A stretch of DNA of 24,000 nucleotides from an uncultured Chthoniobacterales bacterium (GCA_964245885.1 CAXTOX010000007.1:22480-46479); one strand, 5' to 3'. Counted from the stretch's first letter, positions 5,596 to 15,924 are shown. Numbers and translations: made by a program. The notes: generated by a model not told the origin, from the sequence alone.

Positions 5596-6648
5596 CTACC
5601 TCGGTACGACGCGGACCTCCAACCCACTGGTGTTTAATGCTTCCTGCTGGAAGCGCACAGGCAGAAACGCCTCGATCACCCCGATGTTCGTCCGCGCGTG
5701 CGGCGACAAGCCGGCCGTGCGGAACGCCCCGCCACCGGCCAGCGCCATCGGCAGCAAAATCTGGTCGGTTAGGTATTCGCCCACGGGCAACCCGGCCGCG
5801 AGGTAGGCGCGAACCTGTTCCACCAGGCGGTCGGCCACGGCTTCGGCGCGCAAGCCGCGTTCACCGACCGCGCTGAAAACTTCCACGTGCGACTTCGACG
5901 CGACCTCGCCGACGAGCGCGAAACCTTGACCCCGCTCGGCCGGATGCTCGATGCATTCGCACACCGCCCGGCCCCAACGCAGACGTTTGTCCACCTGCAC
6001 GAAGGCGCGCTCCGCCACACCTGGCGGCAAACTGGCGGCATGTGCCACGACGCGGCGTGAGCCTTCCGCACCGCGGGTCAGCAGTTCCACCGGAACAAAC
6101 CGGTCGGTCGGCGTCACGTCCACCTCGATCTGACCACCTCCCGCCGGGTAGAAACCGGCGCGCATCAACGTCGCTTCCACCCGAGGGCCGAAGCGATGGA
6201 AGACCGGTAGGAAAGTGCGCGCTAGAAAATCGAAAGGAGGCGCGAGCGGATTGTGCGTGCCGCCTTCCAACGTCAAACGCGACGGTCCGGCGGCCAGCGC
6301 CAGCGCGGGCAGGATCGTTTGCAAAACGAGCGTCGTACTCCCCGCCGTGCCGACGGCAAAGCGGTAGTCGCCCGCGCGCACCACGCCAGGACGGAACACG
6401 AGTTCGCCCGCGCCGATTTCCGCGCCGTCGCACGCGGCGTCGCTGATCTCGACCGCCGCACGCACCGCCGTCAGGTGCTGCCGCAATAATCCCGGCTTCG
6501 CCCGGCCCGCGCGAATGTTCGTGATGCGGAAGGCGCGGCCCGTCACGAGCGACAGGGCGAGCGAGGTGCGCAGGATTTGTCCTCCGCCCTCGCCCGCCGC
6601 ACCGTCGATGGTGACCACCGGCGACGAACCGGCTGACCGCGTCTTCAC
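5596..6648 (-). CDS. rtcA: RNA 3'-terminal phosphate cyclase RtcA
   Basis: DGAAGEGGGQILRTSLALSLVTGRAFRITNIRAGRAKPGLLRQHLTAV matches the RtcA signature, including the RAGRAKPGL...H nucleotidylation region. A GTG start overlaps the rtcB stop (GTGA at 6648-6645), which implies translational coupling. Confidence 0.9.
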   Translation of the reverse strand: MKTRSAGSSPVVTIDGAAGEGGGQILRTSLALSLVTGRAFRITNIRAGRAKPGLLRQHLTAVRAAVEISDAACDGAEIGAGELVFRPGVVRAGDYRFAVGTAGSTTLVLQTILPALALAAGPSRLTLEGGTHNPLAPPFDFLARTFLPVFHRFGPRVEATLMRAGFYPAGGGQIEVDVTPTDRFVPVELLTRGAEGSRRVVAHAASLPPGVAERAFVQVDKRLRWGRAVCECIEHPAERGQGFALVGEVASKSHVEVFSAVGERGLRAEAVADRLVEQVRAYLAAGLPVGEYLTDQILLPMALAGGGAFRTAGLSPHARTNIGVIEAFLPVRFQQEALNTSGLEVRVVPR

Positions 6649-8156
6649 GCCGCGCCTCCCAGGCTGCCGTCGGCATCCTTGATGACGAACCGTGCCCGCA
6701 GGCGCGCGACTTCCGACGCGAGGCCGGCTGATTTCACGCTGCGCAGCACCTCGTCGAAATCCTTGTACGCCGCGGGTGCCTCATCCTTAGGATAGAACCG
6801 GCAGTTCGTCAGAATGTCGAGGTCGGTGAACTGCTGGTCCACCGTCTGCTGGTCGAACTCGCGGATGGCCGCCTTGCGCCCCTTGGCCCGGCCCGCGCCG
6901 TGGTTGACCGAATAGCAGCTCAACGCCGCGCCCGGTTCCGCGACCATGACGCTGCTACCCGCCGCCGGGTTGCCCGGCAGCAGGATGGGATGGCCCGTCT
7001 CGGCAAACGGCGTGCCGGCGAGCGCGTGGTGACCGCCCGGGTAGGCGCGGGTCGCCCCTTTGCGGTGCACCCAGGCCGGACGATTTCCCACGATCTCGCG
7101 CCGCGCGATGTTGTGGCTGATGAAGTACACCAGCCCGCCGGTCGTGCCGGGAATGATTTCCTGGAACGCTTCCAGCACGAGGGCGTTGATGAGCAGGTGG
7201 TTCACCGTGGCAAAGTTCGCGCCGAGGGCCATGTCGTCCAAGTACGCGTCGGCCTCGGGCGTGTCGAGGGGAGCATACACCAGTTCCTTGTCCTGGCCCG
7301 GCAACGGCAAACCCCAGCGCGCGAAGAACCCCTGTAACGCGTGGAACTGACCCATCGCCAGATTGTGCCCGAAGCCGCGCGAGCCGCAATGCGACAGGAA
7401 GGCGAGGCCGCCGTCGCGCAGGCCGAAACTCTCGGCCGTCGCGCGCAGGCGTTCGTCGCCGGACAGTTCCACCGCCTCGCACTCGCCGAAATGGTTGCCG
7501 CCGCCGTAGCTGCCGAGCTGCGTCATCTTTTCGTCGAACTTCGGGAAAGCGCCGCCGCTGATCAACCGGTCCAGACGCGAGCGGAGGGCGTCCGCCGTGC
7601 CGTCGTGGCCGACGTGCGACGCGTCCTCGCAATGCGCGGCCCACGCGGGCGGGATGCCCAGGGCTTCGCACACCTCGACGGACGCGCCTTCGGTCGCCAC
7701 GCGGCGGCCGAGTTCCGGCGAAACACGGCGTGACTTGCGCGCGGAACGCTGCCCACGACCGGCACCGGTTGGAGTGCGTTCGCAGATCGCGTCGATGAGC
7801 GAGCGGCGGACCGTGCGTTCCGCGACGGCGTCGGCGGGCAGGCCGAGGGCGAGCAGGCTCATGGAGCATTTGATGTCCACGCCGACCGGGCCGGGATAGA
7901 TGTGCGTGGGCGACACCATCACGCAGCCGACCGGCGCGCCGTAGCCCGCGTGGGCGTCGGGGTTGAGGACGAGGTCCGTCACGCCGGGCGCGCCGCGGGA
8001 GTTGAGAGCCTGTTCGAGGCAGCGCGCGTCGAAGCCCTGACGGATGGCTTCGGTGCCGATGACGGTGATCGGCTTGCCGTGCGACCCGCGCGCGGGCAGG
8101 AAGCCGGTGGCCTCGCCGGTGGCGGTGATGGGTGAAGGGATGGATTCAGGGTTCAT
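6645..8156 (-). CDS. rtcB: RNA ligase RtcB (3'-phosphate/5'-hydroxyl RNA-splicing ligase), long ~500 aa form
   Basis: Motifs present: NPDAHAGYG, GVDIKCSM, SYGGGNHFGE, HCGSRGFGH and VNHGAGR (the nucleophilic His motif). Confidence 0.9.
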   Translation of the reverse strand: MNPESIPSPITATGEATGFLPARGSHGKPITVIGTEAIRQGFDARCLEQALNSRGAPGVTDLVLNPDAHAGYGAPVGCVMVSPTHIYPGPVGVDIKCSMSLLALGLPADAVAERTVRRSLIDAICERTPTGAGRGQRSARKSRRVSPELGRRVATEGASVEVCEALGIPPAWAAHCEDASHVGHDGTADALRSRLDRLISGGAFPKFDEKMTQLGSYGGGNHFGECEAVELSGDERLRATAESFGLRDGGLAFLSHCGSRGFGHNLAMGQFHALQGFFARWGLPLPGQDKELVYAPLDTPEADAYLDDMALGANFATVNHLLINALVLEAFQEIIPGTTGGLVYFISHNIARREIVGNRPAWVHRKGATRAYPGGHHALAGTPFAETGHPILLPGNPAAGSSVMVAEPGAALSCYSVNHGAGRAKGRKAAIREFDQQTVDQQFTDLDILTNCRFYPKDEAPAAYKDFDEVLRSVKSAGLASEVARLRARFVIKDADGSLGGAA

Positions 8157-8198
8157 GGCAAGATCAGGTTGGAGTGAGGAAATGTGTGAGCAGGCTTC

Positions 8199-8354
8199 CC
8201 GCCGCAGGCGTCGTCAACAATGGGTAGGGATGGCTCTCCGAGCCGCTCCCTAACTTTTCTGGAAAGTGTTTCGCCGCAATGACAGTTAACCAGAGAACAA
8301 TAGGGATTGCCTCGGAGAGCCATCCCTACCCATTGTTGACGACGCCTGCGGCGG
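8199..8354. repeat. REP/BIME-like inverted repeat pair, family 1, inside the rsr-rtcB transcription unit
   Basis: Arm 8199-8252 (ccgccgcaggcgtcgtcaacaatgggtagggatggctctccgagccgctcccta) faces arm 8301-8354 (tagggattgcctcggagagccatccctacccattgttgacgacgcctgcggcgg). The spacer is about 48 nt. It has the same core as the 431-568 element. Confidence 0.8.
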
Positions 8355-8381
8355 CTCCAGGCATGATTTGAAAGGAAATTT

Positions 8382-8513
8382 ACGGCGACAAAATTGAAGT
8401 GACGTTTTACGTGCTCTACCACTGAGCTACGGTTCCGTGGAAAGTGGAACCGGCGGGACTCGAACCCGCGACCCGTCCGTGTATAGGGATGTAGTCACAT
8501 CGGCATTCGCCGC
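8382..8513 (-). ncRNA. Y RNA-like unit 4 (YrlA-type) with a circularly permuted tRNA-like module
   Basis: Minus strand. Terminal stem GCGGCGA/UCGCCGU, then AUGCC..GUGAC UACAU, paired 3' with AAAAC GUCAC. Inside are a T arm GCGGG-UUCGAGU-CCCGC, a 7-bp acceptor-like hairpin CGGUUCC/GGAACCG, and a D arm UA-GCUC-AGUGGUA-GAGC. The arm order T, acceptor, D is that reported for YrlA. Ends are approximate. Confidence 0.75.
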
Positions 8514-8543
8514 AAAATTTGGAAATGGATTAAAAGTGAGGAT

Positions 8544-8692
8544 GACCGACGGTTCGTGATGACAAGAGATTGGTGAAACGGTTTTCGATGCTCTCCCGTT
8601 GAGCTATTCGGCCTTGCGGCCGAACCGGGACTCGAACCCGGAACCGGCGAATTAAATGTAGTTCCACGCGGCATTCGTCACGAGAGCCGGTC
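8544..8692 (-). ncRNA. Y RNA-like unit 3 (YrlA-type) with a circularly permuted tRNA-like module
   Basis: Minus strand. Terminal stem UCGUGACGA/UCAUCACGA (one C-A mismatch) plus outer GACCG/CGGUC, then AUGCC..GUGGAAC UACAU, paired 3' with AAAAC C GUUUCAC. Inside are a T arm CCGGG-UUCGAGU-CCCGG, an acceptor-like 7-bp stem UUCGGCC-GCAA-GGCCGAA (GNRA loop), and a D arm UA-GCUC-AACGGGA-GAGC. Ends are approximate. Confidence 0.75.
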
Positions 8693-8699
8693 ATTCTGC

Positions 8700-8848
8700 G
8701 AGCGTGCCGACAACCGGCGGCAGGACGTTTTACTGAGCTATCCCGTTTTGAGGCGGGACCAGATGTCGAATCTGGGACCTCCCGCGCGAGGCTTTCACCT
8801 CGCGCGGGCGCTCTTACCATGTAGTCCGTGCCTGCATTCGGCACGCTC
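8700..8848 (-). ncRNA. Y RNA-like unit 2, whose tRNA-like module appears to be opened in the D loop rather than the anticodon stem
   Basis: Minus strand. Perfect 11-bp terminal stem GAGCGUGCCGA/UCGGCACGCUC, then AUGCA..GGAC UACAU, paired 3' with AAAAC GUCC. Inside are GGUAAGAGCG, an 11-bp GC hairpin CCCGCGCGAGG-UGAAAG-CCUCGCGCGGG, AGGUC, a T arm CCAGA-UUCGACA-UCUGG, an acceptor-like hairpin UCCCG..CGGGA, and UAGCUCAGU. Confidence 0.7.
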
Positions 8849-8876
8849 AAATTTTCTGCAAAGAACAAGGGGTTGA

Positions 8877-8939
8877 TCGCCGACAAGTTTCTGGTGAGAC
8901 CCTCACATGGTAAAATGTAGTCCCACCGGCATTCGGCGA
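8877..8939 (-). ncRNA. Y RNA-like unit 1, a minimal form without a tRNA-like module (YrlB-like?)
   Basis: Minus strand, starting 6 nt after the rsr stop. Perfect terminal stem UCGCCGA/UCGGCGA, then AUGCC GGUGGGAC UACAU...GUCUCACC (8 bp with one G-U). It has the same 5' motif as units 2-4 but only about 63 nt. Confidence 0.55.
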
Positions 8940-8944
8940 AAGGT

Positions 8945-10501
8945 TTACAGTGCGATTTGCTCGATCTGCTCCACCCAGTGACCCGCCCGCAGGTTGCCCT
9001 GCGCGAAGGCCGCCACGATCTCGAACACCGCGTCCGAGAAGCCGCCGACGTTAAGGATGTCCCCGCGTTCGGCCGCCTGCGTGCTCGCGTACGGCTGGAT
9101 GTCCAGGCACACCAGCCGGGCGCGCGGGTTGCGGGCGCGGAACGCCGACCATTCGGCCATCGTCGCCGTGCTGCGGCCCCCACCCTGCGCGTCCATCCAG
9201 GACATGTTGTCCGAGACGACGATCACGAGGTCGCCGGTCGCGCGCATCTTGTTCAGGTGCGCGAGTGGGGCCGAGCAGTTCGTCCCGCCGCTGGGCAGCG
9301 AGGCGAGCTTCTGCGCGTTGGTCATGACGCTGTCGCGGGCGTTGAGCTGGCACGGCACGACGCTGTCGCTGAAGGCCAGCACCTCCGCCGCCGGATTGCG
9401 CCGCAGGACGCTCGCCGCCACCAACGCGGCCACGTCGATGCAGCGCGTCTTGGTCGTGGACCCGGCGCGGTGGCCGGTCACGGGCGACTGCATGGAACCG
9501 GACACATCCGGGCAAACGTACACCTGTCCGTCGATGGCCGGGACGTTCTCCGTGGCGATCTCCATCGCGTCCTGGAGCGCGCCCCGCACGGTGGCGGGCA
9601 CCGCCTGGTCGGCGGCGTGGAACGCGGTCAGGAGTTGGTAGGGAAAGCACCGGGCGCGGCGCACCTTCTGCGGGTCGCGCAGACGGTAGGCGATACGGTG
9701 GGTAAGGTCCTGATCGTCGAACACGCCGTGGCGCGCGAAGGTGTTCAGGTTCATGCGCGTGGTCTGCCACGAGGCGTTCTCCGCGATGGCCTGCCAGGCG
9801 GCGCGGTCGAGGTCGAGCGCGGTCAGCATCTGGAAAGGCACGTCGGGCACGGCCTGGATGAAGCCACCCTTGAAGGCGTCGAACTGGCGTACCAACGGCG
9901 GCAACTGCGCGGCGTCGTGCGTGCGGCCGATCAACCAGCCGTACAGCGCCTCGCGCTGAGCGTTGGCCGGGCGCGGGTGCACCATCTTGACGACATCCGC
10001 CAGCGAAGGCGACTGGCCGACCGACGCGCGGAACACGCCCTCGTCGTCGCGGCGTTCCAACCAGCGGCGCACGAGGCGGCGCGGGGCGCTGCCGAGCGAC
10101 TTGCGGCCCGTGACGCCGCTGCGGACGATCTGCACGAAGCTGCGCAACGTGCGGCCGTCGTCGATCACGCGGTCAAAGACGCGTTCCAGCATCGGTACGT
10201 CGAGCGTGGCCAGCGCGGCGCAAAGCAGGGCGGGCGTGTCCTTCATGAAGCCACGCGTGCGGCAGTAGATCGCCGTCTGCGCCACGAACGCCGCGTCGGC
10301 CTGGCCGGCCAGCGCGAGAAGGCGTTCCAACTGCGCTTCCGCGCTCGCGTAGAACGTCGTGTTCAGGCAACCGGTGACCGCATACTGCGCGAGGGCATGC
10401 CGGGGCGGCAGCGCGAAGGCCGGGCCGCCGGCCTCATTGCGGGCGTTCGTCCGGGGCAGGATCGCCCCGGCAACGGTCTGGAAGAGAGTCTTGTTGGCCA
10501 T
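8945..10501 (-). CDS. rsr: Ro60-related protein Rsr (TROVE domain plus C-terminal vWA/MIDAS)
   Basis: MANKTLFQTVAG...NEAGGPAFAL...QYAVTGCLNTTFY is a typical TROVE N-terminus. The MIDAS motif is CPDVSGSM. I prefer the ATG at 10501 over the ORF-track start at 10552, whose extra 17 aa are Arg/Thr-rich. Confidence 0.9.
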   Translation of the reverse strand: MANKTLFQTVAGAILPRTNARNEAGGPAFALPPRHALAQYAVTGCLNTTFYASAEAQLERLLALAGQADAAFVAQTAIYCRTRGFMKDTPALLCAALATLDVPMLERVFDRVIDDGRTLRSFVQIVRSGVTGRKSLGSAPRRLVRRWLERRDDEGVFRASVGQSPSLADVVKMVHPRPANAQREALYGWLIGRTHDAAQLPPLVRQFDAFKGGFIQAVPDVPFQMLTALDLDRAAWQAIAENASWQTTRMNLNTFARHGVFDDQDLTHRIAYRLRDPQKVRRARCFPYQLLTAFHAADQAVPATVRGALQDAMEIATENVPAIDGQVYVCPDVSGSMQSPVTGHRAGSTTKTRCIDVAALVAASVLRRNPAAEVLAFSDSVVPCQLNARDSVMTNAQKLASLPSGGTNCSAPLAHLNKMRATGDLVIVVSDNMSWMDAQGGGRSTATMAEWSAFRARNPRARLVCLDIQPYASTQAAERGDILNVGGFSDAVFEIVAAFAQGNLRAGHWVEQIEQIAL

Positions 10502-10583
10502 GGAAGTGCAGGTTGACGTTTGAGTCGCCCGCCGTCGGTTCGATGTTCGCACCGGACGGACGTTGAGCGATGAACCCTTCTAT

Positions 10584-10598
10584 CGCTAGGCACGTGCC
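10584..10598 (-). promoter_or_regulatory. Sigma54 (-24/-12) promoter for rsr-Y RNA-rtcBA
   Basis: The minus strand reads TGGCACGTGCCTAGC. This matches TGGCACG-N4-TTGC, with GG and GC at the canonical spacing and one mismatch (TAGC for TTGC). It lies about 85 nt upstream of the rsr ATG, next to divergent rtcR, which is a sigma54 activator. Confidence 0.7.
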
Positions 10599-10743
10599 AG
10601 CGAAGATTTCTCCAATTGCTTTCAATGCGTAAATTCCTTTCGCGCAGAGAGAAAAATTTATTTTGGCATGGCATCGTGTTAAGCAGGGCGCATTGTTGCT
10701 AGCACCAACCTAGATTTATCGCTAGCTATTTAGCGTATCCGCC

Positions 10744-12369
10744 ATGCCTACCAAGAAGCTCGTCGTCCTCGGTTTACTCGGGACCCAGTTGGATTCGGGC
10801 AAGAACGCCCACCGCTGGGAAAACTGGCGGCCCACCGTCTCGCTCTGCCAACACGACGATCTGCTCGTCGCGCGGCTCGAACTACTCCACGACCGCCGCC
10901 ACACCAGCCTCACCGAAACCGTGACGACGGACATCGCCGGGGTCTCACCGGAGACGGAAGTTCACGGGCACCTCGTGGAATTCAGCGACCCGTGGGACTT
11001 CGAAGAGGTCTACGGCTCGCTGGCGGACTTCGCGCGCGGCTATCCCTTCGACCCGGAAAAAGAAGACTACCTCGTCCACATCACCACGGGCACGCACGTC
11101 GCTCAGATCTGCCTCTTCCTGCTGACGGAGTCGCGACGTTTCCCGGGACGGCTCATCCAGACTTCCCCGCCCGCCGAACGCCAGCCCCGGCACCGCGCGG
11201 CCGCCGGGCGGTACTCCATCATCGACCTGGACCTGTCGCGCTACGACCGCATCGCGGCGCGCTTCGCCGAAGAACAGCGGGAAGCGCGCACGTTCCTCAA
11301 AAACGGCATCGCCACGCGCAACGCCGCGTTCAACCGCATGATCGAGGAGATCGAGCAGGTGGCCGTCGCGTCGCGCGAGCCGATGCTGTTCATGGGGCCG
11401 ACCGGCGCGGGGAAATCGTCGCTGGCGCGCAAGGTGTTCGAGTTGAAACGCGGCCGGCACCAGCTCGCCGGGCAGTTCGTGGAGGTCAACTGCGCGACCC
11501 TGCGCGGGGACACTGCGGTGAGCACGCTCTTCGGCCACGTGCGGGGAGCGTTCACCGGGGCGCAGCGCGACCGTCCGGGACTGCTGCGCACGGCGAACGG
11601 CGGGCTGTTGTTCCTCGACGAAATCGGTGAACTCGGCCCCGACGAACAGGCCATGCTGCTGCGCGCGCTGGAGGAAAAACGCTTCCTGCCCGTCGGCGCG
11701 GACCAGGAAGCGGTGAGTGACTTCCAGCTCATCGCCGGAACGAACTGCGACCTGTCCGGGGCGGTGGCCAAGGGCGAGTTCCGCGAGGATCTGCTGGCGC
11801 GGATCAACCTGTGGACCTTCGCACTGCCAGGGCTCGCGCAACGGTCCGAGGACATCGCGCCCAACCTCGACCACGAACTCGAACGCGCGGCGCAACGGCT
11901 CGGCCGGCGCGTCGGCATGGCCCGGGACGTGCGCGGGGCGTTCCTGGATTTCGCGCGTTCGGGCGAGGCGAAGTGGAGCGCGAACTTCCGCGACCTGAAC
12001 GCCGCCGTCACGCGCATGGCCACGCTCGCGCCGGGCGGACGGATCACGCGCGAGGTGCTGGCCAGGGAGCTTATCCGTCTGCGGGCTGGCTGGCAGAACG
12101 CGAACGGCACGGAGAGCGGCCGGGCGGGCACGGGCGACGAGGCATTGCTGGTCGAAACGCTGGGCGCGGACGGGGCAGCCTCGCTCGACTTATTCGACCG
12201 GGCGCAGCTTGCCTGCGTAGTGCGGGTTTGCCGCGACAGCAAAACCTTGAGCGAGGCCGGCCGGCGGCTCTTCGCGGTGACCCGGGGCAAACGCAAGGTT
12301 GCCAACGATGCCGACCGGCTGCGCAAATATCTCGCGCGTTTCGGCCTGGTTTGGCCGTGCGGCGTCTAG
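10744..12369 (+). CDS. rtcR: Sigma54-dependent transcriptional activator RtcR (CARF-like sensor N-domain, AAA+ core, C-terminal HTH)
   Basis: N-terminus KLVVLGLLGTQLDSGKNAHRWENWRPTVSLC is RtcR-type. Walker A is GPTGAGKS, the sigma54-contact loop is GAFTGA, and Walker B is LLFLDEIGEL. It is divergent from rsr. Confidence 0.9.
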   Translation: MPTKKLVVLGLLGTQLDSGKNAHRWENWRPTVSLCQHDDLLVARLELLHDRRHTSLTETVTTDIAGVSPETEVHGHLVEFSDPWDFEEVYGSLADFARGYPFDPEKEDYLVHITTGTHVAQICLFLLTESRRFPGRLIQTSPPAERQPRHRAAAGRYSIIDLDLSRYDRIAARFAEEQREARTFLKNGIATRNAAFNRMIEEIEQVAVASREPMLFMGPTGAGKSSLARKVFELKRGRHQLAGQFVEVNCATLRGDTAVSTLFGHVRGAFTGAQRDRPGLLRTANGGLLFLDEIGELGPDEQAMLLRALEEKRFLPVGADQEAVSDFQLIAGTNCDLSGAVAKGEFREDLLARINLWTFALPGLAQRSEDIAPNLDHELERAAQRLGRRVGMARDVRGAFLDFARSGEAKWSANFRDLNAAVTRMATLAPGGRITREVLARELIRLRAGWQNANGTESGRAGTGDEALLVETLGADGAASLDLFDRAQLACVVRVCRDSKTLSEAGRRLFAVTRGKRKVANDADRLRKYLARFGLVWPCGV

Positions 12370-12382
12370 CCGCCCATCGCGT

Positions 12383-13138
12383 TCAGGTGTCTGTCGAGAT
12401 GTCGTCCCAATCCTGATCCATGTAGCCGATGAGCCAGTTCAGGACGTAATGGCGTTCCTGCACGACGCCACCTTCCAGTTTCGCGGGCGTCTCTTTGCCC
12501 TTGACCCGTGCATCGACGGCAGCCCAATGGTAGCGGTAAGCCAGATCGGCCTCGTCGAGGATGGAAGCCAGCGGGCGGAGTTTGGCGTCCTGGACGAACC
12601 GGGCGGTTGTCCGGTCTTTCAGGAGGCGGACCGCCTTGGGGACATCGCACATGGCCTCGGGACGTTCCAGGGTGTCGACATATCCGAGAGCCCACAGCAA
12701 CACCCAGTAGTCCTCGTAGCGCCAGGAGTAGTCGACGCGTTCCTGCTGGGTCGGGTTCGGGTCCTTGATGAAGGCCGCCTCCTTCGGCGAAAGGAACGCT
12801 TCGGCTCCGTACCTTTGCACCAGAGCATCCACCGTGGCCTGATCGACGCCCTCGCCTTTGGCGGCCGTCAGGCAAACGGCGATGGCGCGCCTGGCGATCT
12901 CCTCCGCCGTGCGGGTCTTCGCCTGCGTGGAATCTTCGATGACCGGCAGGTGGTCAATAGTGGGAACGCCCTCTTGCCGGAGGCGGGTGACCGAACGAGC
13001 CCTGCGCTCGACGGCCTCTTTGGACGGCTCATTGCGCTCATGCTCTTCGATCTTGAGACGGCGCTCGTCATTGGTCTGGGACATCAGCGTGGTAGAAAAA
13101 ACAAGGCACAGAGCAAAGGTGGCCAGATAGCGTTTCAT
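12383..13138 (-). CDS. Secreted hypothetical protein (possibly DUF4272-like)
   Basis: I prefer the ATG at 13138 (MKRYLATFALCLVFSTTLMSQ, a signal peptide). WRYEDYWVLLWALGYVD resembles DUF4272 as far as I remember that family. It lies 62 nt downstream of serA on the same strand. Confidence 0.6.
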   Translation of the reverse strand: MKRYLATFALCLVFSTTLMSQTNDERRLKIEEHERNEPSKEAVERRARSVTRLRQEGVPTIDHLPVIEDSTQAKTRTAEEIARRAIAVCLTAAKGEGVDQATVDALVQRYGAEAFLSPKEAAFIKDPNPTQQERVDYSWRYEDYWVLLWALGYVDTLERPEAMCDVPKAVRLLKDRTTARFVQDAKLRPLASILDEADLAYRYHWAAVDARVKGKETPAKLEGGVVQERHYVLNWLIGYMDQDWDDISTDT

Positions 13139-13200
13139 AGGTTGAAGAAGCCGACGCCCAAACATTACACAAGCTCCCCCGCCCTGCCGCGCACAGCCCC

Positions 13201-14799
13201 TTACAAACTCACCACCCGCGCGCTGAGAATATCCGCGTCGCCGCGCACCTGCGCGAGTGTTTCGGCGTCGGGTTCGCTGTCGAGGTTGATGACCGTCAAC
13301 GCCGTGCCGCCGGCGGCGTCGCGGCTCAGGCTCATCGTGGCAATGTTGATCCCGCGTCCGCCCAGCAGGCTGCCGATCTTGCCGACCATGCCGGGCACGT
13401 CGCGGTTTTCCAGTAGTAGGAGCACGCCTTCCGGCCGCGCCTCGATGTGCTGGCCGTTGATCTGCACGATGCGCGGCTTGGCCCCGAAGAACGTTCCCGC
13501 CACCGACACCGGCGCGCCTTCACCCGAGACCGCGACCTCCAGCAGGTCCGTGAAATCGCCCGGCACATTCTGGCGCGTCTCGACGACCTTCAGGCCCCGC
13601 TCGCGCGCCCGCGCCAGGGCGTTGACCGCGTTGACGACCTCCGCGCCCATCGCGGGTTCGAGGAAGCCTTTGACCACCGCGCGGGTGATCGGCCCCGTGT
13701 CGGATTCGTTGACGCGGCCCGAGTAGTTGACGGTGAGTTGCTCGCTGCGGCGCGACGGCGCGAACTGCGCCACGAACCGCCCCAGCCGCGCGCCGAAATC
13801 CAGGTACGGCCCGACGACCGCGAGCGTTTTGGCGTCGAGGTTGGGCGCGTTGACGGCGTTGCGGATCACCCCGTCCACCAGCGCCGCACGGACGGCTTGC
13901 GCGATCTCGATGCCGACGCTTTCCTGCGCCTCCGCCGTGCTCGCGCCGAGGTGCGGGGTGAACACCATCTTCGGATTCGCCCGCAACGGGAAATCGGCCG
14001 GCGGCGGTTCGGTCTCGAACACGTCCAGCGCCGCCCCGGCAACGTGGCCGCTTTCCAGCGCGGCCAACAGCGCCGCTTCGTCGATCAGACCACCCCGTGC
14101 GCAGTTGACGATCCGTACCCCGGCCTTGCACAACGCGAGACGGCGGGCGTCGAGCATGTGCCGGGTCTCGGGCGTCAGCGGCATGTGCATCGAGATAAAA
14201 TCCGCGCGCGGCAGGGCGTCGTCGAGGCCATCGGCGAGTTCAACCTGGAGCGCGCGCGCCCGGCTGGCGGCGAGGTACGGGTCGTAGGCGACCACGCGCA
14301 TACCGAAGGCAATCGCGCGCCGGGCCAGTTCGCTGCCGATGCGGCCCATGCCGAGGATCGTCAGCGTCTTGCCGTAGAGTTCGACGCCCTGGAACTTCTT
14401 GCGCTCCCACTTACCCGCCACCACGGAGGCACTCGCCTGCGGGATCGTGCGCGCCGTGCTCACGAGCAGCGAGAACGTGTGCTCGGCCGTGGAGATCGTG
14501 TTGCCGTCGGGCGTGTTCATCACGATGACCCCGCGCGCCGTGGCCGCTTCCACATCCACGTTGTCCACTCCCACCCCGGCCCGGCCGACGACGCGCAACG
14601 CCCCGGCGGCTGCGAGCACGCGTTTGTTCACCTTGGTCTCCGAACGCACGATCAGCGCGGCGCAGCCGGGGATGACCTCCAGGAGTTGCTCCTCCTTCAT
14701 CCCGGTCTGGAAGATAACCTCGAAGCGGCCGTCGCTCTGGAGTTCCTCGACGCCGCGCGTCGAGATGGGATCGGCAACCAGCACTTTGAATTTGTCCAT
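13201..14799 (-). CDS. serA: D-3-phosphoglycerate dehydrogenase SerA (long form with ASB and ACT domains)
   Basis: Starts MDKFKVLVADPIS at 14799. NAD motif is LGMGRIGSELARRA, followed by the catalytic region CARGGLIDE...HLGAST and an ACT-like C-terminus. The 816 aa ORF in the track is an Arg-rich 5' over-extension. Confidence 0.9.
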   Translation of the reverse strand: MDKFKVLVADPISTRGVEELQSDGRFEVIFQTGMKEEQLLEVIPGCAALIVRSETKVNKRVLAAAGALRVVGRAGVGVDNVDVEAATARGVIVMNTPDGNTISTAEHTFSLLVSTARTIPQASASVVAGKWERKKFQGVELYGKTLTILGMGRIGSELARRAIAFGMRVVAYDPYLAASRARALQVELADGLDDALPRADFISMHMPLTPETRHMLDARRLALCKAGVRIVNCARGGLIDEAALLAALESGHVAGAALDVFETEPPPADFPLRANPKMVFTPHLGASTAEAQESVGIEIAQAVRAALVDGVIRNAVNAPNLDAKTLAVVGPYLDFGARLGRFVAQFAPSRRSEQLTVNYSGRVNESDTGPITRAVVKGFLEPAMGAEVVNAVNALARARERGLKVVETRQNVPGDFTDLLEVAVSGEGAPVSVAGTFFGAKPRIVQINGQHIEARPEGVLLLLENRDVPGMVGKIGSLLGGRGINIATMSLSRDAAGGTALTVINLDSEPDAETLAQVRGDADILSARVVSL

Positions 14800-15712: not shown

Positions 15713-15924
15713 CAGCCCCGGCAGGGGCGCAAGCGTTTAGCCCACGGCGCGAGCCGTGGGAAAGCCTGCGGCACCACAAAGCCCCGGCAGGAGCGCAAGA
15801 AAAGACGCAGGCCAGCGGGACCACCGAGCGGGTGTTCTTCCGCCCCTGCCGGGGCTGGGCTGGTGGGTGCTGGTTCCCCACGGCTCACGCCGTGGGCTAA
15901 ACTCTTGCGCCCCTGCCGGGGCTG
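15713..15924. repeat. REP cluster, family 3: nested inverted copies of CAGCCCCGGCAGGGGCGCAAG-N-TTTAGCCCACGGCG-N-GAGCCGTGGG
   Basis: The 48-nt unit at 15713-15760 and its reverse complement at 15877-15924 differ at 2 positions. Partial inverted copies lie at 15780-15799 and 15841-15858. Each full unit holds the hairpin CCCACGGC-nnnn-GCCGTGGG. The cluster sits between convergent genes. Confidence 0.8.

Follow-up and report, generated by a model that had tools for sequence, protein, structure and literature searches.

Four probable Y RNAs of the YrlA lineage between rsr and rtcB in a Chthoniobacterales bacterium

The 24,000-nt stretch of DNA that we analysed (the window) carries, between rsr and rtcB, four paralogous structured units that are very probably Y RNAs of the YrlA lineage, forming part of an rsr-(Y RNA x4)-rtcB-rtcA operon that would be driven by RtcR and sigma-54. 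The four RNAs are further members of the known YrlA-type Y RNAs, found in a known genomic context, and what is new here, the large set of paralogues and the topology of the second unit, extends that knowledge modestly. As predicted from the sequence, three distal (effector) architectures are combined with one Rsr-docking module in a single operon, so that the locus has a larger number and a wider range of Y RNA shapes than the species examined so far. The candidate RNAs, in the order of their strand, are:

Unit 1, 8877-8939, minus strand: short hairpin Y RNA, 63 nt
Unit 2, 8699-8849, minus strand: about 150 nt, tRNA-like domain apparently opened in the D loop
Unit 3, 8553-8683, minus strand: canonical YrlA-type tRNA mimic, 130-131 nt
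Unit 4, 8382-8513, minus strand: canonical YrlA-type tRNA mimic, 132 nt

An earlier sequence-only reading had proposed four minus-strand units in 8382-8939, each closed by a stem of its own 5' and 3' ends, and exactly four were found. They share a common module consisting of the terminal helix (GNCGAAUGC on its 5' strand), an asymmetric internal loop with AUGC(C/A) opposite N5-7UUG, a second helix and CUACAU. The AUGC(C/A) inside the stem and the UUG before the terminal 3' strand occur in all four units and AAAAC in units 2-4, as had been described. Each unit carries CGAAUGC-N6-8-RACUACAU; searching for CGAATGC-N5-9-RACTACAT gave four matches in 24 kb, all on the minus strand within 8382-8939, against 0.00 expected by chance and none in 100 dinucleotide shuffles, and ACTACAT is absent from the rest of the 24 kb on both strands. 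This module is the published Ro60-binding region of YrlA, an RNA defined by GNCGAAN0-1G, YUAY, T, AS and D arms and a gene on the rsr strand no more than 4 kb away from rsr (PMC4201824). The GNCGAAN0-1G motif lies on the 5' strand of the terminal helix as GCCGAAUG, GCCGAAUG, GACGAAUG and GGCGAAUG in units 1-4, respectively, and YUAY follows the second helix as CUAC in each unit.

Some details of the earlier description had to be revised. The quoted terminal stems are all present, but that of unit 3 contains one C-A mismatch in this window (UCAUCAC, compared to UCGUCAC in relatives). A length of about 149 nt, given for units 2 and 3, fits the former (about 150 nt) but not the latter (130-131 nt), and the spacers, described as U-rich and 7-30 nt long, are only partly U-rich and measure 27, 15 and 39 nt. 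The earlier reading had also missed that units 2-4 contain tRNA-like T and D arms.

Gene order and candidate promoter

Related loci, designated by L numbers, were collected by an Rsr-protein scan with one genome per species, which yielded 80 loci. The gene order in the window is rtcR (divergent), sigma-54-type promoter, rsr, Y RNAs, rtcB and rtcA:

10744..12369, plus strand: rtcR, Pfam RtcR (2.4e-85) and Sigma54_activat (4.7e-47)
10584..10599, minus strand: sigma-54-type promoter element TGGCACGTGCCTAGCG (GG-N10-GC), upstream of rsr
8945..10552, minus strand: rsr (Ro60 orthologue), Pfam TROVE and vWA_Ro60
6645..8156, minus strand: rtcB RNA ligase, intact, Pfam RtcB (8e-94), 89% identical to the L001 orthologue over 494 aa
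5596..6648, minus strand: rtcA RNA 3'-phosphate cyclase, Pfam RTC (1.6e-79)

The rsr product matches D. radiodurans Rsr (PDB 2NVO) over the full length with an E-value of 8e-22, also matches Ro60 (1YVP), and is 91% identical to the Rsr of L001. The longest rsr ORF opens at a GTG at 10552, while relatives begin at the ATG of MANKTLFQ (position ~10513 here), so that translation in the window probably begins at this ATG, 13 codons downstream. The first Y RNA unit shares the strand of rsr, starts 5 nt past its stop codon and thus lies within the 4 kb of the YrlA definition. The sequence-only reading had seen no credible ORF between rsr and rtcB, and this agrees with our search: a protein-coding reading was considered and rejected, the overlapping ORFs (8495-8674, 8153-8422 and 8530-9183) having no Pfam match.

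The divergent rtcR gene encodes a sigma-54-dependent activator that combines an N-terminal RtcR domain (CARF-like) with a sigma-54 AAA+ domain. The promoter element has two mismatches to the sigma-54 consensus, and such matches occur in the window at chance level (8 compared to 10.5 expected); its TGGCA.G...GC bases are invariant upstream of rsr in seven related loci, with flanks that are not conserved (alignment A5). We found no terminator and no sigma-70 or internal promoter in the rsr-rtcB gap, which makes co-transcription plausible, and the Salmonella rsr-yrlBA-rtcBA operon has the same gene order (PMC7790460). Judging by its genes and the conserved promoter element, the locus has the make-up of an RtcR-controlled rsr-Y RNA-rtcBA repair operon, probably driven by an RtcR-activated sigma-54 promoter.

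A long inverted repeat occupies part of the gap between unit 4 and rtcB (8157-8381). Its 54-nt arms (8199-8252 and 8301-8354) are 94% complementary and enclose a 48-nt loop, with a predicted RNA fold of -128 kcal/mol (z -13). Close relatives do not have this repeat, and their rtcB begins about 40-60 nt past unit 4, indicating that about 170-200 nt were inserted specifically in the window; the rtcB gene is intact. Two exact-word scans of metagenome contigs with the arms gave no match. The repeat could represent a MITE-like element, or form a hairpin of the RNase III type once the operon is transcribed. On the other side of the locus, a 475-aa ORF with no Pfam match directly follows rtcR (12299-13726, plus strand), and two divergent copies of the Acido-Lenti-1 RNA motif (RF01687) lie at 15714-15760 (minus strand) and 15877-15923 (plus strand), ~115 nt apart and scoring 39.2 and 48.2 bits, above the Rfam gathering threshold.

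Predicted folds, family matches and covariation

Unit 1 consists of a 7-bp terminal stem, GCCGAAUGC, the second helix and CUACAU (MFE -26.2 kcal/mol, z -3.8 compared to shuffled sequences). It has no tRNA-like domain, which makes it a YrlB-like rather than a YrlA Y RNA. The YrlA domain of T, AS and D stem-loops is predicted in units 3 and 4, with the Rsr stem replacing the anticodon stem, while unit 2 has T and AS stem-loops and a split D arm. The aligned fold of units 3 and 4 runs through the terminal helix, the AUGC internal loop, the second helix, CUAC, the T arm (GGGUUCGAGUCCC), a loop-closed acceptor stem, the D arm (UAGCUCA..GGUAGAGC) and ..UUG to the 3' strand, and the terminal stem of unit 4 can be extended to 8379-8516. 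Compared to shuffled sequences, folding stands out in unit 2 (MFE -79.9 kcal/mol, z -6.3) and is less clear for units 3 and 4 (z -2.6 and -1.8). The predicted elements, all on the minus strand, are:

8838-8848 with 8700-8710: unit 2 terminal stem
8810-8818: unit 2 GGUAAGAGC, 3' half of the D arm
8781-8808: unit 2 anticodon-like hairpin, 11 bp with a 6-nt loop
8759-8775: unit 2 T arm (CCAGA UUCGACA UCUGG)
8741-8758: unit 2 closed acceptor stem
8732-8740: unit 2 UAGCUCAGU, 5' half of the D arm (UA-GCUC-AGU)
8625-8641: unit 3 T arm
8607-8624: unit 3 closed acceptor stem
8590-8604: unit 3 D arm
8453-8469: unit 4 T arm
8430-8452: unit 4 closed acceptor stem
8413-8427: unit 4 D arm

There is no local D hairpin in unit 2, where the two halves of the D arm are separated by the rest of the domain. 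After CUACAU the order is D 3' half, a hairpin at the anticodon position, AGGUC at the position of the variable loop, T arm, acceptor stem and D 5' half. In our model, pairing of GAGC with GCUC gives the unit the cloverleaf of a tRNA whose D loop has been opened, so that unit 2 looks like a tRNA opened at this point with an anticodon-like arm kept. RNAfold gives a slightly different local pairing, GGU with GCU; we prefer the GAGC/GCUC stem, given that the D arm has GGUAGAGC and UAGCUCAG as its two conserved halves. The long-range stem is invariant in 10 sequences and is therefore supported by conservation and not by covariation. The same layout recurs in L001, L003, L004, L006, L031, L036 and L038, and the unit 2 type is found in loci labelled Verrucomicrobiota, Acidobacteriota and, in one case (L038), Heliobacteriaceae. 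The topology has a precedent in D. radiodurans Yrn1: the published model of that RNA includes a T arm and an anticodon-like arm with a stem of 5 bp and a loop of 6 nt, and shows D-loop features only in part (PMC4201824). Shorter RNAs of the unit 2 type, 112 nt long, occur at L001 5833-5944 and L002 5655-5766, where the anticodon-like hairpin is missing and GGCAGAGC...UAGCUCAG is kept. The presence of long and short forms side by side in L001 suggests that the unit was duplicated recently and that a deletion came afterwards.

At gathering thresholds, Rfam reported nothing in 8382-8939, and all four RNAs are missed by routine Rfam annotation because no gathering score is reached in the interval. 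In an E-value scan, units 4 (64.8 bits, E 2.7e-14) and 3 (53.1 bits, E 6.1e-11) both aligned to positions 1-114 of the YrlA model (RF02553), at scores below the gathering score of 69, which is an operational cut-off and not a biological feature. Indeed, unit 3 orthologues pass this score in L002 (69.7) and L006 (70.3), as do many related units (up to 87.4); it was passed in 13 of the 15 relatives scanned, five loci having two matches each. Unit 2 had no match to the YrlA model even in the E-value scan. Unit 1 scored 15.3 bits (E 8.8) against YrlB (RF02565, gathering score 97) and is not a member of that family by sequence, but belongs to a conserved family of its own in at least 56 loci.

Two hold-out models were used to look at the units independently of Rfam. 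The first (R1), built from short units of distant loci with the window and its close relatives left out, recovered unit 1 with 58.2 bits (E 1.8e-12). The second (R2), for which unit-2-like RNAs of three distant loci (L031, L036, L038) were used and which was run over the whole window with no filters, scored 71.9 bits on unit 2 (E 4e-20), 39.5 on unit 4, 34.9 on unit 1 and 32.2 on unit 3, with the next-best match in 24 kb at 11.7 bits, i.e. the model had exactly four matches, which are the four units.

The stem covariation that had been read from the paralogues is also seen in relatives, where orthologous loci were aligned. For each alignment we give the share of paired cells, the pairs changed on both sides and the covariation score next to that of a shuffle control, which ignores phylogeny:

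A2, 61 long units: 98.3% paired cells; 23/33 pairs changed on both sides; 0.518, shuffle 0.160 (0/500)
A3, 56 short units: 97.9% paired cells; 11/16 pairs changed on both sides; 0.419, shuffle 0.120 (0/500)
A8, 10 unit-2-type RNAs: 97.1% paired cells; 21/44 pairs changed on both sides; 0.312, shuffle 0.135 (0/500)

With the 3' partners slid, scores fell to 0.06-0.11 in A2 and 0.03-0.08 in A3, and RNAalifold recovers the YrlA fold from A2. Pairing of the terminal helix is biased in these alignments, since units were picked partly by requiring a terminal stem, and the terminal stems of unit 3 in the window (with its C-A mismatch) and in L003 were assigned by hand; the inner helix, T arm and acceptor stem are free of this selection. 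An independent tertiary test of the predicted tRNA-like fold is the switching of the Levitt pair (tRNA 15:48), which is G:C in 32, A:U in 28 and A:C in one of the 61 units. Unit 3 has A15:U48 in the window and G:C in L001-L003, and unit 4 has G15:C48 in the window and A:U in L002 and L003. Together, the flanking rsr and rtcB-rtcA genes, the matches to the YrlA family and the covariation argue for the Y RNA reading.

Copy number in relatives and alternative explanations

The 80 loci come mostly from Verrucomicrobiota and Acidobacteriota, with some labelled Planctomycetota or Myxococcota, and include Chthoniobacterales relatives with 75-91% Rsr identity. In a structure-free motif count, the module was present in 76 loci, where all matches lie on the rsr strand. 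Copies per locus range from 1 to 6, and about 24 of the 80 loci carry 4-6 copies (six in one locus, five in 10 and four in 12 more), although the five copies of L069 are dispersed and do not form one array. Four copies are thus ordinary for this clade. The earlier claim that four is more than usual holds in comparison to the three species studied experimentally, each with two Y RNAs (PMC4201824), but not among these relatives. According to that paper, every YrlA-like sequence was listed in cases where more than one was present within 4 kb of rsr, and Chen et al. 2014 mention 'multiple YrlA-like sequences' near some rsr genes. Our literature search found no paper linking Y RNA, Rsr and Verrucomicrobia.

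Relatives also contain a further class of units, 90-115 nt long, with the Rsr module, a T arm and an acceptor-like hairpin and no D-arm sequence, in which the module often reads AAUACAU instead of ACUACAU. This class is found in L007, L010-L025, L033, L039, L044, L051, L056, L061 and L063 and not in the window; its alignment (A7, 'T-arm-only') was ragged and was left out of the modelling.

The variation in copy number could mean that the array turns over fast and that only some of the four units are functional Y RNAs, the others being decaying duplicates. Losses of this kind are seen in relatives, in that both unit 2 of L002 and a fifth unit in L001, which duplicates unit 2, have no anticodon-like hairpin, and unit 3 of the window has its C-A mismatch and a lower Rfam score. 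However, the four closest loci (L001-L004) keep all four units in the same order in the intergenic alignment. Unit identity is 71-97% to L001, L003 and L004 and, for units 1, 3 and 4, 84-87% to L002, with unit 2 of L002 at 61%, compared to 18-73% for the spacers. Furthermore, every helix shows compensatory changes, the invariant long-range D stem of unit 2 excepted, and the Levitt pair of unit 3 has switched to A:U in concert. We therefore consider it unlikely that part of the array is decaying.

We give a still lower probability, very small in our view, to the structures acting mainly in cis, through processing, stability or attenuation, and setting the ratio of rsr to rtcBA expression without being released as free RNAs. 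The units do sit between two ORFs of the operon, in a gap where neither a terminator nor an internal promoter was found. Yet the homologous YrlA and YrlB of Salmonella are stable Rsr-bound RNAs (PMC4201824), and a covarying tRNA-like tertiary pair would not be needed in a cis-acting processing signal. Moreover, the motif arrays of L052, L054 and L069 lie upstream of the rsr match, showing that placement between the ORFs is not conserved.

A degenerate array of tandem tRNA genes or pseudogenes, or a REP/MITE-like palindromic repeat, can be practically dismissed: the T and D arm-like sequences and weak Rfam tRNA matches (RF00005, at best 14.6 bits, E 8.7, in the window, too weak for a tRNA gene) and the bridging of neighbouring units by the tRNA model in L010 and L025 would fit it, but ARAGORN finds 0 tRNA genes in the window, the T arm precedes the D arm, the acceptor stem is closed by a loop, units 3 and 4 have no anticodon arm, and the motif keeps to one strand and accompanies rsr in 76/80 loci across phyla.

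The two bridging matches (L010 5866-6015 and L025 4665-4807) score just above the gathering threshold across the junction of adjacent YrlA units and consist of the D arm of one unit, a long insertion and the T arm of the following unit. Tandem YrlA arrays can accordingly be read as tandem tRNAs in a shifted register, in line with the idea of an origin from dimeric tRNAs cited in bioRxiv 10.1101/312249. In L040, a tRNA match above the gathering score (5683-5754, 50.8 bits) directly follows rsr and precedes four Y RNA-like units, an arrangement that recalls the tRNA-Asp/Yrn1/Yrn2 polycistron of D. radiodurans.

Possible roles and comparison with known Y RNAs

For the four Y RNAs, we infer transcription, processing, Rsr binding and tethering by analogy with work on D. 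radiodurans and Salmonella (PMC4201824, PMC7790460, bioRxiv 10.1101/312249). The operon would be expressed upon activation of RtcR by damaged tRNA, the Y RNAs would be cut out of its transcript, and Rsr would bind their conserved 5' strand and stabilise them. During the RNA-damage response, the RNAs may then act as a gate on the Rsr cavity, or as tethers that connect Rsr with tRNA-binding partners such as PNPase.

The role of the distal module of bacterial Y RNAs is still open for the Salmonella operon (PMC7790460). With three effector architectures on one docking module in a single operon, the locus represents a natural test set for the function of this module. It is conceivable, though we hold it only tentatively, that the array provides Rsr with a set of adaptors, each recruiting different partners through its own tRNA-like end, with unit 2 as a third independent circular permutation of a tRNA. 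If this were true, the permutation in unit 2 and the arrays of 4-6 units in many soil lineages would point to a repeated origin of Y RNA families from tandem tRNA arrays read in shifted registers. The topology of unit 2, if confirmed, would be a data point for the origin of tRNA mimics from dimeric tRNA transcripts. On a more general level, sets of 4-6 Y RNA paralogues beside rsr are common in soil Verrucomicrobiota and Acidobacteriota and thus exceed the two per species known from experimental work.

The closest known system is YrlA (RF02553) of Salmonella Typhimurium, which is likewise encoded 3' of rsr and in its direction, ahead of rtcBA and with a divergent rtcR. It shares GNCGAAN0-1G, YUAY (CUAC), the order of T arm, closed acceptor stem and D arm and the Levitt-pair covariation, and units 3 and 4 align to its full Rfam model. 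The differences are that Salmonella has one canonical copy, whereas there are two here, both under the Rfam gathering score, and that its host belongs to the Proteobacteria and ours to the Verrucomicrobiota (with Chthoniobacterales relatives). Unit 1 resembles the short hairpin Y RNAs, i.e. S. Typhimurium YrlB (RF02565), M. smegmatis YrlB and D. radiodurans Yrn2, in combining the Rsr-binding module with a simple hairpin, and as in yrlB-yrlA it is the first RNA after rsr, although it is not a member of Rfam YrlB at the sequence level.

Unit 2 parallels D. radiodurans Yrn1 in its T arm and in its anticodon-like hairpin, whose loop is 6 nt long, and, much as Yrn1 shows only partial D-loop features, it forms no local D hairpin. 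Unlike Yrn1, which has a metazoan-like module and lies upstream of rsr, unit 2 has a YrlA-type module, keeps both halves of the D arm far apart and lies downstream. The set as a whole is reminiscent of the vertebrate Y RNAs, which are also paralogues with one conserved Ro60-binding stem and differing distal modules. Vertebrate Y RNAs are separate Pol III genes, and they are not known to have a tRNA-like domain or to share an operon with Ro60. Per species, vertebrates have two to four distinct Y RNAs (PMC4201824).
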